A stretch of DNA of 23,844 bases from IMG/VR virus record IMGVR_UViG_2531839668_000007; one strand, written 5' to 3'. Source of the DNA: a virus (taxonomy: Duplodnaviria > Heunggongvirae > Uroviricota > Caudoviricetes). Position numbers and translations under genes: made by a program. Below the pieces are notes generated by a model. That model made no database searches and was not told the DNA's origin. It saw only the letters and a list, made by a program, of their open reading frames with translations. How positions within the stretch are numbered: position 1 is the first letter of the stretch; each line of letters opens with the position of its first letter. Below, in pieces: positions 7,887 through 8,700 of the stretch.

Positions 7887-7991
7887 TTAACCTGCGCGGT
7901 TAGCGTTATCACGGTAATGATTAACAGCCCATGACAGGCAGACGATGAGGCAGATGACCAGAACGTAGATAATCGCGGTTACTCTGCTCAT
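7887..7991 (-). pseudogene. Rz: Truncated Rz (i-spanin) fragment, 34 codons
   Basis: ATG at 7989-7991 overlaps the endolysin stop (ATGA); it reads [30 protein letters not shown] then NRAG-stop. The first 30 aa match the lambda Rz N-terminus as recalled; the rest of Rz and embedded Rz1 are missing. Confidence 0.7.
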
Positions 7992-8485
7992 TGTTGCCCC
8001 CACAAACAGACTTCACGCTCAATCTCACGGCGAGTCATCAGCCCTTTCCATTGCTTACCGCCAGCGTATGTCCAGCGCCGTAGCTGATCACATGCGCCTT
8101 TGATATCGCCCTGGTTTATTTTACGAAGAAGCGTCGATGTTCTGAAATTGCCAGCGCCCACGTTGTAAACGAACGAGTAAAGAGCGCCGCGCGTTGTTTC
8201 CGGTATATCGACGTTGATGTACGGGTTTATTTGTCTGGCGACCGTGGCAAGGTCTTTATTCAGGAGGGCTTTGCATTCTGCTTCGGTATACGTTTTACCG
8301 GGAATGATGTCTTTTCCGGTGTGTCCGTGACATACAGTCCATACGCCAACGATATCTTCGTATGGTATGTAGCTGACACCTTCCAGGCCATCGTCACCAC
8401 TCGGACCAGTGATGAGCACAGACGCTATGGCAACAGCCCCACCACCAATAGCAGCAGCAACAGCCTTGCGTAATGATGGCGACAT
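7988..8485 (-). CDS. R: SAR (signal-anchor-release) endolysin, T4-lysozyme-like, phage-21 R type
   Basis: 165 aa; N-terminal Gly/Ala-rich weakly hydrophobic segment ([21 protein letters not shown]) followed by a lysozyme domain ([19 protein letters not shown]...). Closely matches the phage 21 R product as I recall it. Confidence 0.8.
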
Positions 8486-8700
8486 TATTCACCTCTCGCA
8501 GCCTTACGCTTATCTTCTTTAATCTTGAAATAAAGGTTTGTCAGATACGTCAGCAAGCCAAACACCAAGCTACCCAATACGCCTATTGCCACCCACTGGG
8601 ATGGGGAGACTTTGTCCAGCAACTGCAGTAGCCAGTATCCCGTCCCCACCGCTGACGTGGTGTATGACACACCTGTTGTTATTTTTTCCATCTGGTACAT
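8485..8700 (-). CDS. S: Class II holin (pinholin, phage-21 S type) with dual-start motif
   Basis: In-frame ATGs at 8698-8700 and 8689-8691 (Met-Tyr-Gln-Met) give 71- and 68-aa products, [71 protein letters not shown], with two predicted TM segments. The stop overlaps the endolysin start. Confidence 0.8.

Follow-up and report, generated by a model that had tools for sequence, protein, structure and literature searches.

In an active phage of the phage 21 type, the R21-type endolysin is exported through the Sec system and held inactive in the inner membrane by a Gly/Ala-rich SAR helix, while the S21-type holin builds up in the membrane, where its weakly hydrophobic TMD1 exits the bilayer and its TMD2 forms small "pinholes". 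These dissipate the proton-motive force, upon which R21 is released and activated and the murein is degraded. Lambda S, in contrast, is a three-TMD holin that forms large holes, and lambda R is a soluble cytoplasmic transglycosylase. Both the pinholin and SAR-endolysin cassette family and the mosaicism of lambdoid phages are already known and are textbook matter. Stx-phage holins of the 933W/H-19B type have already been classed as P21-family pinholins (PMC10462455). A cassette of the S21/R21 family (essD, rrrD, rzpD/rzoD) survives in DLP12, a defective lambdoid prophage of E. coli K-12, where the essD-rrrD-rzpD module reportedly influences the maintenance of the cell wall and the production of outer-membrane vesicles (PMC7918800).

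The stretch of DNA analysed here (the window, 23,844 nucleotides; all features given below lie on its minus strand) is 100% identical to NZ_CP051001.1 and belongs to a prophage at the lambda attB site, between ybhB and ybhC, of E. coli O157:H16 strain 98-3133. It encodes an S holin (8485-8700, identified as an open reading frame and by sequence) and an R endolysin (7988-8485, 165 aa) which together make up a conventional phage-21-family pair of pinholin and SAR endolysin, intact and of a very common kind. The gene order, the start-stop overlaps (TAATG, where the R start overlaps the S stop, and ATGA, where the R stop overlaps the Rz start) and the lengths of the products (71 or 68 aa for S and 165 aa for R) are those of the phage 21 cassette. 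Pairwise protein alignment found S identical to S21-71 at 53 of 71 positions (75%, E = 2e-40) and gave no alignment of S with lambda S107 at E ≤ 100; R is identical to R21 at 155 of 165 positions without a gap (94%, E = 7e-111), and does not match lambda R significantly (best E = 1.6). The first-pass annotation, which had assigned holin and endolysin to phage 21 rather than to lambda S and R, is upheld by these identities, and the opposite outcome for which it had allowed, a better fit to lambda S105/R, did not occur in the pairwise alignments. Lambda S105/S107 and R resemble the window pair in their late-operon position, in their overall job and, in the case of S, in possessing a dual-start motif, but share no detectable sequence similarity with it.

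S belongs to the P21 holin S family both by its identity to S21-71 and by its match to the Pfam profile (PF04971, "Bacteriophage P21 holin S", E = 1.1e-32, 112 bits versus a cut-off of 26, with profile positions 1-63 of 64 covered), and an NCBIfam scan assigned it to no family. Its membrane segments, like those of R, were judged by Kyte-Doolittle (KD) hydropathy calculation rather than by a dedicated topology predictor, and have the same two-TMD layout as in phage 21: a SAR-like TMD1 (residues 7-28, uncharged and weakly hydrophobic, mean KD 0.75, 50% G/A/S/T), a hydrophobic TMD2 (residues 31-58, uncharged and strongly hydrophobic, mean KD 1.23, peak 2.16) and a charged C-terminal tail. The Gly/Ser face of TMD2 is conserved at the phage 21 positions, G40, G43, S44 and G48 (71-aa numbering) being invariant in an alignment of seven holins (window S, phage 21, 933W, 434, SfI, Lambda_4C10 and IdasGreatGrand). 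Within this class II family, S is of the 933W/434 subtype and not the phage 21 allele: the protein is 93% identical to 933W S and 96% identical to 434 S, and the 5' half of the gene has 65% DNA identity to phage 21 versus 91-93% to 933W and 434. The Stx1/Stx2c cassettes of Stx phages 1717, 2851, JLK-2012 and Stx1_121427 have 95-96% DNA identity to S-R-Rz' of the window, whereas 933W pairs the same holin type with a different lysozyme of 177 aa.

The region upstream of S was aligned with its equivalents in 933W, 434 and phage 21. A terminator-like hairpin with a T-run, found by consensus scan, lies directly upstream of the gene (8738-8766), and in phage 434 a terminator is annotated at the equivalent site. 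Two Shine-Dalgarno-like motifs were read from the sequence, GGGAG (8712-8708) at 7 nt before the first start codon and GGGG (8705-8702) at 10 nt before the second. The hairpin that pairs GGGAG at the window S start is of the same stability as shuffled controls (z = -0.57), and the initiation regions of the window, phage 21, 933W and 434 each fold into a small Shine-Dalgarno hairpin with z of -0.6 to -0.9 relative to shuffled sequence. An sdi-like regulatory structure at the S start was rejected on these grounds.

The Met-x-x-Met dual start described at first pass is exact in its coordinates (ATG1 at 8700-8698 and ATG2 at 8691-8689, in frame with a TAA stop at 8487-8485) and in its products of 71 and 68 aa. 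S21-like holin/antiholin regulation, however, cannot be assumed from the two ATGs, because the N-terminal extension is Met-Tyr-Gln (MYQM, uncharged, identical in 933W) and not Met-Lys-Ser (MKSM) as in phage 21, SfI and Lambda_4C10. Among at least 119 copies of the subtype in IMG/VR (matches listed, not de-replicated), the extension is MYQM in 88, IHQM in 15, MDQM in 8 and MNQM in 8, and none of the 119 listed copies has Lys or Arg in it. ATG1 is present, with a good GGGAG, in 104 of the 119 listed copies (87%) and missing in 15, a degree of retention which suggests that the longer product matters somehow. A charged dual start is a property of the S21 allele and not of the P21 holin S family as a whole.

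It is unlikely that the two ATGs of S specify a holin and a genuine antiholin, as they do in phage 21, and that the 71-aa form holds back the release of TMD1. Such a pair would be consistent with the Met-x-x-Met spacing, which is the same as in S21, with the position of the Shine-Dalgarno motif, 7 nt before ATG1 in both genes, and with the retention of ATG1 in most of the listed copies. The antiholin character of S21-71, however, is ascribed in a review to the extra positive charge at its N-terminus, and S107 is explained likewise (PMC9636201), whereas the longer product of the window S gains no charge and the extensions of the listed copies that keep ATG1 are Tyr-Gln, Asp-Gln or Asn-Gln. Moreover, phage 434, an isolated phage with a curated genome record, has ATA in place of ATG1 (extension IHQM), and its curators annotate the 68-aa product only. 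If both forms of the window S are made, they are more likely to be equivalent holins than a holin and its antiholin, since the Met-Tyr-Gln extension is uncharged. The window holin is a dual-start gene without the charged residue that underlies the published antiholin model, which is relevant to the numerous holins of this subtype in Stx phages.

R is an R21-type SAR endolysin with a GH24 lysozyme domain (PF00959, Phage_lysozyme, 2e-45 by Pfam profile search), encoded by DNA sharing 93% identity with phage 21 and 98% with Lambda_4C10. It matches the PDB structures of R21 (3HDE/3HDF) and RrrD (4ZPU) at E of about 1e-106 (3HDE, 6.8e-106; 4ZPU, 9e-107), and is named "lysozyme RrrD" (rrrD) by PGAP; an NCBIfam scan of R gave sub-threshold matches only. 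The N-terminal SAR domain proposed at first pass is found at residues 8-30 (nucleotides 8464-8396), which follow R6-K7 and are SAR-like by hydropathy (uncharged, 65% G/A/S/T, mean KD 1.59), and residues 1-30 differ from R21 at two positions only (P2S and I18V). The Glu-Asp-Thr triad of the lysozyme domain, E35 (8383-8381), D44 (8356-8354) and T50 (8338-8336), which we take to be the catalytic triad of R21, is identical in the two proteins. From the 94% identity to R21 we infer that R would be released from the membrane and activated upon depolarisation.

The spanin genes that complete the phage 21 cassette did not remain intact in the window. The Rz remnant (i-spanin pseudogene, 7887-7991) consists of 30 native codons, 26 of them identical to residues 1-30 of phage 21 Rz, followed by a frameshifted tail of four codons and a stop. 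A 293-bp deletion within Rz, mapped by comparison with phage IdasGreatGrand and with a sister prophage (L010), has its junction at 7903|7902 and a GATAAC repeat at each end. Rz1 (o-spanin) is gone, its lipobox ORF in an intact relative lying almost wholly inside the deleted interval. Thus the window encodes no two-component Rz/Rz1 spanin, unlike phage 21 and unlike the Stx phages and 434, which are complete genomes with annotated Rz-type spanin genes. Beyond the junction, the 3' end of Rz (out of frame) and the downstream intergenic DNA (7725-7902) match L010 7092-7277 at 99.5% identity and run collinear with IdasGreatGrand. A second deletion, about 1.5 kb long, has its junction at 7718-7724; lost with it are rha, ylcI, cosN and the first 35 or so codons of Nu1, so that the window matches L010 in two blocks (window 7902-7718 = 7092-7277 and window 7724-3797 = 8785-12713). 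The cosN sequence (GGGCGGCGACCT) is found at L010 8496-8507 and is absent from the window. Both deletions are recent, since the near-identical sister prophage is without them. Among the records listed for a query with the Rz junction, only 98-3133 and O2:H16 BA92 contain it uninterrupted; Rz ("lysis protein") is intact in at least three further genomes whose S-R is 100% identical, and two of these were seen to carry the same prophage. Truncation of Rz through an assembly artefact is unlikely, the identical junction being present in BA92, an independent complete genome.

The first-pass annotation placed the cassette in an otherwise lambda-type packaging and tail backbone. The lambda-like character of Nu1, A, I and J holds as to the type of sequence but not as to the genes, all four of which are fragments, and with cosN also absent nothing of a backbone survives. 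The Nu1 fragment (terminase small subunit pseudogene, 7279-7722) corresponds to lambda Nu1 residues 39-181 without the N-terminal part; it is identical to lambda at 139 of 143 positions (97%) versus 53% identity to phage 21, and matches PF07471 at profile positions 40-164 only. The A fragment (terminase large subunit pseudogene, 6996-7304) comprises codons 1-103 of 641 and is identical to lambda A throughout (103 of 103, 100%) versus 69% identity to phage 21 A. A larger 21-derived block that would take in Nu1 and A was rejected on these identities. Codon 103 of A is fused out of frame to codon 104 of I through loss of a segment that spans about 14 kb in lambda, and the I fragment (tail assembly protein pseudogene, 6632-6994, lambda I residues 104-223) is identical to lambda I at 118 of 120 positions (98%), so that the Nu1, A and I pieces are of lambda type rather than of 21 type. 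The J remnant (tail tip protein pseudogene, 5033-6571) aligns with lambda J in three separate BLASTP segments (residues 1-211, 327-349 and 822-1102, 71-81% identical) with two internal deletions. The window has no intact copy of cos, Nu1, A, J or the head and tail genes, and Nu1, A, I, J, Rz, bet and ninG are all marked as partial by PGAP. The fragmentary state of the four flanking genes and the deletion of Rz/Rz1 had escaped the first-pass annotation. The A-I fusion is also present in L010, and the order of decay can be read from this comparison: the A-I and J deletions, shared with the sister prophage, are older, and the Rz/Rz1 and cos-Nu1 deletions, which occur in just two of the listed genomes, are younger.

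An intact Q antiterminator of the PF06323 type (10494-11183, 1.7e-91) has no similarity to either Q21 or lambda Q, and is presumed to be the activator of the late operon that holds S and R. Phage 21 differs in its Q21, which is not in the window, and in the tRNA genes between its Q and S, which have no counterpart in the PGAP annotation of the window. A promoter-like site near Q (10510-10482) and terminator-like hairpins between Q and S (10448-10427 and 9135-9117) are consensus matches only, and promoter-like sites were no commoner in the consensus scan than in shuffled sequence. The description of the locus as a clean example of module exchange is not supported: the cassette is damaged, with Rz1 missing and no more than 30 native residues left of Rz, it is internally mosaic, and Q is neither lambda-type nor 21-type.

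The window as a whole is a decayed effector prophage like Sp3/CP-933K of E. coli O157:H7, with which it shares its integration locus next to ybhC and its effector cargo (nleC, nleH1-1, nleD and nleB2). NleC, NleH1-1 and NleD have been located on Sp3 in O157 Sakai (PMC2323221). O157:H7 genomes have 98% DNA identity over 66-72% of the window. The O157:H16 element has kept the cargo genes nleB2, nleC, nleH1 and lpxR, and cos, all of the head genes and most of the terminase and tail genes are gone; its bet gene is fused to ninG, and the interval between the two, which is the lambdoid immunity and replication site, is deleted. The O157:H7 prophages, in contrast, still possess terminase, capsid and tail genes, to judge by their feature names, and lack the two further lineage-specific deletions in the lysis and cos region of the O157:H16 version.

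The S-R pair is very probably a relic in the late operon of this heavily eroded lambdoid prophage, the counterpart of Sp3/CP-933K. The cassette is probably silent, because the prophage has lost the bet-ninG region, the site of lambdoid pL and pR. If expressed here, S and R would damage the murein at most, with phage release being impossible. The element is a fixed effector island, unable to package or release DNA; the intact S and R should not be taken as evidence of an inducible phage, and their significance lies mainly in correct annotation. The reading frames of S, R and Q are all intact, which counts against interpretation of the pair as a relic. A cryptic promoter, or read-through into Q or the late operon, could escape a consensus scan and may give some expression.

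DLP12 offers a precedent (PMC7918800) for a pair domesticated by the host and selected while the rest of the prophage decays, but we regard such a role in the window as improbable. Both genes are intact and, despite their eroded neighbours, show 100% identity across several sister prophages, and R bears the name of RrrD and matches its structure; however, this identity reflects recent common ancestry rather than measurable purifying selection, and the lambdoid pL/pR interval has been deleted. The youngest deletions fall in the cassette itself, whereas the DLP12 operon is described with both spanins (PMC7918800), and terminator-like hairpins lie between Q and S. The compound proposal that 933W/434-type holins have a charge-independent dual start, and that a spanin-less S-R pair has also been kept for a host function, is equally improbable. 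If it were true, an uncharged or acidic Met-(Tyr/Asp/Asn)-Gln extension could tune the timing of lysis, unlike the Lys-dependent S21-71 and S107 antiholins, and a spanin-less S-R could serve the host, for example in vesicle release or murein turnover, as in the reports on DLP12.

There is next to no chance that an inducible lambda/21 hybrid phage, arisen by a clean swap, has this region as its working lysis module: S, R and Q are intact, the order Q-S-R-Rz-Nu1-A fits the lambdoid plan and the S/R/Rz start-stop overlaps are kept, but the anatomy of the prophage already refutes it, with cosN absent, Nu1, A, I and J in fragments, all DNA between codon 103 of A and codon 104 of I deleted, bet fused to ninG with the loss of the immunity and replication interval, and both Rz and Rz1 destroyed.

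The relic cassette belongs to a widespread type, and the first-pass observation was right in essentials and ordinary. The downstream neighbour of this holin subtype in IMG/VR loci is of more than one gene kind, according to a crude classification by the first ATG found close to the stop codon of S, which supports no counts. Holin S was found in 438 phage records, and S-R-like DNA is present in 4860 of 5426 complete E. coli genomes (about 90%), with a median of 2 copies.

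The lysis genes S and R belong to the phage 21 family, as the first-pass annotation had proposed, and this assignment is confirmed for both. S (minus strand) runs from an ATG at 8700-8698 to a TAA at 8487-8485, with a second in-frame ATG at 8691-8689, giving holin products of 71 and 68 amino acids exactly as claimed. The endolysin gene R (8485-7988, minus strand, 165 aa) begins on the final base of the S stop codon (TAATG), and ends in a stop that shares bases with the start codon of the next open reading frame, Rz (ATGA, 7991-7988); both overlaps are identical in the annotated phage 21 genome. 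In pairwise protein comparisons, the holin is identical to phage 21 S21-71 at 53 of 71 positions (E=2e-40) and gives no alignment with the lambda holin S107, and the endolysin is identical to R21 at 155 of 165 positions (E=7e-111), with nothing significant against lambda R (best E=1.6); neither product aligns better to lambda S/R, the comparison on which the proposal was to stand or fall. Pfam places the holin in PF04971 'Bacteriophage P21 holin S' (1.1e-32) and the endolysin in PF00959 Phage_lysozyme (2e-45), and the latter also matches the solved structures 3HDE and 3HDF (R21) and 4ZPU (RrrD, a K-12 cryptic-prophage lysozyme) at about 1e-106.

The transmembrane pattern expected of both products, including the proposed N-terminal SAR domain of the endolysin, was recovered by hydropathy calculation. 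In the endolysin, R6-K7 is followed by uncharged residues 8-30 (65% Gly/Ala/Ser/Thr), which fit a predicted SAR segment, and E35, D44 and T50 of R21 are all kept in the alignment. Of the two holin segments, TMD1 (residues 7-28) is weakly hydrophobic and rich in small residues, and TMD2 (residues 31-58) is strongly hydrophobic, with a basic tail thereafter; G40, G43, S44 and G48 of TMD2 are invariant in an alignment of seven homologues. One of the ten differences from R21 lies at R codon 43 (8356-8358), adjoining catalytic D44, which specifies Glu here and Lys in R21, RrrD and the phages 434 and Lambda_4C10 (AAA to GAA).

The match to phage 21 extends to the family of both products but not to the holin allele, which on DNA identity is of the 933W/434 subtype; phage 21 character is weaker in the holin than in the endolysin. 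For the 5' half of S, DNA identity is 65% to phage 21 versus 91-93% to phages 933W and 434, and Lambda_4C10 is the nearest relative of the 3' half (94%). For R the figures are 93% (phage 21), 95% (434) and 98% (Lambda_4C10). These differing closest relatives place mosaic joints inside the cassette, beyond those at its edges. In 933W the same holin is followed by an unrelated 177-aa lysozyme. The S-R-Rz' block shares 95-96% DNA identity with its counterparts in several Stx1 and Stx2c phages, and holins of this subtype from Stx phages have previously been assigned to the P21-family pinholins (PMC10462455).

The two ATGs of S are real, and the first has a good Shine-Dalgarno sequence (GGGAG) 7 nt upstream, but a phage-21-like holin/antiholin pair arising from them is not supported for this allele class. 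One review ascribes antiholin action in S107 and S21-71 to an extra N-terminal residue with a positive charge (PMC9636201). Whereas the holins of phage 21, SfI and Lambda_4C10 begin Met-Lys-Ser-Met, that of 933W begins Met-Tyr-Gln-Met, as in the window, and phage 434 has ATA-CAT-CAG-ATG without an upstream start, its curated annotation giving a 68-aa pinholin alone. Among 119 copies of this holin subtype in the IMG/VR matches listed, which were not de-replicated, the extension is MYQ in 88, IHQ in 15, MDQ in 8 and MNQ in 8, and contains Lys or Arg in none. Small Shine-Dalgarno hairpins are present, with stability no greater than that of shuffled sequence.

The lambda-type packaging and tail backbone in which the cassette had been said to lie survives as fragments only. 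The lambda affinity of these neighbouring sequences was correctly recognized, in that Nu1, A, I and J are lambda-type rather than 21-type, but every piece is a remnant: Nu1 (97% identical to residues 39-181 of the lambda terminase small subunit, versus 53% to phage 21), A (103 of 103 residues identical to the lambda large subunit, versus 69% to phage 21), I (118 of 120 identical to lambda I residues 104-223) and J, which matches lambda J at residues 1-211, 327-349 and 822-1102 only. A codon 103 is joined directly and out of frame to I codon 104, equivalent to the loss of about 14 kb of lambda, namely the remainder of A, every head gene and the tail genes up to and including K, and the lambda cohesive-end sequence GGGCGGCGACCT does not occur in the window. 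The J remnant (4790-6571, minus strand) reads as a single 593-aa frame across two internal deletions; from about residue 515 on it is low-complexity, rich in Gln, Lys, Pro and Arg, with no lambda J match. PGAP ends the J pseudogene at 5033, followed by a tail-fibre C-terminal fragment.

The window matches, at 100% identity, part of the chromosome of E. coli O157:H16 strain 98-3133 (NZ_CP051001.1), where RefSeq annotation places a lambdoid prophage between bioA-ybhB and ybhC; we take this interval to be the lambda attachment locus. Beyond the tail-fibre remnants lie genes of type III secretion effectors on the minus strand, nleH1-1 (1-891 region), nleC (1708-2727) and nleB2 (2761-3741), with nleD just outside the window (2072-2770 of locus L001), intact cargo amid decayed phage genes. 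In O157 Sakai these effectors sit on prophage Sp3 (PMC2323221), and O157:H7 genomes, at about 98% identity, cover 66-72% of the window and retain terminase, capsid and tail genes there; thus, the element is a reduced version of Sp3/CP-933K. On the opposite strand, lpxR (lipid A 3'-O-deacylase family; 11658-12617, plus) is flanked on one side by a 5' fragment of a Q-type antiterminator (~12761-12832, minus) and on the other by ylcG and a complete, different Q gene, as if this cargo gene had inserted where two Q modules recombined. A complete IS66-family element (18300-20915, plus; tnpA, tnpB and an ISCro1-family transposase) is inserted in the early-left region, directly after a DNA polymerase III theta-like pseudogene with an internal stop.

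Decay has also reached the lysis cassette. The third frame (7887-7991, minus) encodes 30 Rz residues (26 of 30 identical to phage 21 Rz), then four frameshifted codons and a stop. Aligned with phage IdasGreatGrand, Rz shows a 293-bp internal deletion with GATAAC at both ends (junction 7903|7902); the embedded lipoprotein gene Rz1 of the intact relative falls almost entirely within it, so both spanin subunits are lost. A near-identical prophage at the same site in dog isolate Z1323PEC0012 (L010), 100% identical in S and R, shares the A'-I' fusion and truncated J but, unlike the window, has full Rz, rha, ylcI, cosN (L010 8496-8507) and full-length Nu1. By BLAST against this sister prophage, the window has two extra deletions: the 293-bp one in Rz, and a second of about 1.5 kb between a point slightly downstream of Rz and Nu1 codon ~35. 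Since the A-I and J deletions are common to the sister prophage and the Rz/Rz1 and cos-Nu1 deletions are not, the order of decay is clear: the former are older, the latter recent. A 120-nt query spanning the Rz junction matches without interruption, among the records listed, in 98-3133 and O2:H16 strain BA92 only, and the other ten contain the 293-bp insert. Spanins are established as necessary for the final lysis step in Gram-negative hosts (e.g., PMC6139136); with both lost, the cassette could not complete lysis even if expressed.

The upstream Q (PF06323 in Pfam) has an intact reading frame and resembles neither Q21 nor lambda Q when compared with each; it adds a third module type to the late region. 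A promoter-like site overlapping the Q end (10510-10482) and three terminator-like hairpins between Q and S (10448-10427, 9135-9117 and 8766-8738, the last with a counterpart in the annotated terminator upstream of S in phage 434) fit a putative Q-dependent late operon. In the early region, bet (plus) abuts ninG (minus) at about 13952, each missing its N-terminus, at a single deletion joint; the interval lost is the one in which lambdoid phages have gam through ninF, including immunity and replication genes. Because lambdoid phages also have the early promoters driving Q in this interval, the S-R cassette is probably normally silent. The early region of the sister prophage has a different, larger deletion (window 13766-16252 is absent there by BLAST). 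The Q-S interval (8843-10324), where Stx phages carry stx and nanS-p, holds three small genes of unassigned function: a 132-aa frame (8843-9241, plus), a DUF3927 gene (9322-9480, minus) and a multi-pass membrane protein of 247/252 aa with no Pfam match (9566-10324, minus).

Domestication of the S-R pair by the host, which has a precedent in DLP12 (PMC7918800) and would accord with the intact S, R and Q, is very improbable, as recent ancestry accounts for the S-R identity of the sister prophages and part of the cassette was lost in the latest deletions. A working hybrid phage is ruled out by the anatomy. The cassette, with its 933W/434-subtype holin, is instead a well-known, near-ubiquitous one, already described, which has lost its spanin genes and lies in a dead prophage. 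Of 5426 complete E. coli genomes, 4860 contain S-R-like DNA (3736 of them across 80% or more of its length; median two copies per genome), and the holin occurs in 438 phage records. In many IMG/VR contigs (loci L011-L130), the first ATG-initiated frame that begins at the S stop and exceeds 100 codons is of neither the R21 nor the 933W lysozyme type; this candidate gene, crudely detected and called at 114-200 aa, starts MKKKYELVVKG... or MTQNYELIVKG....
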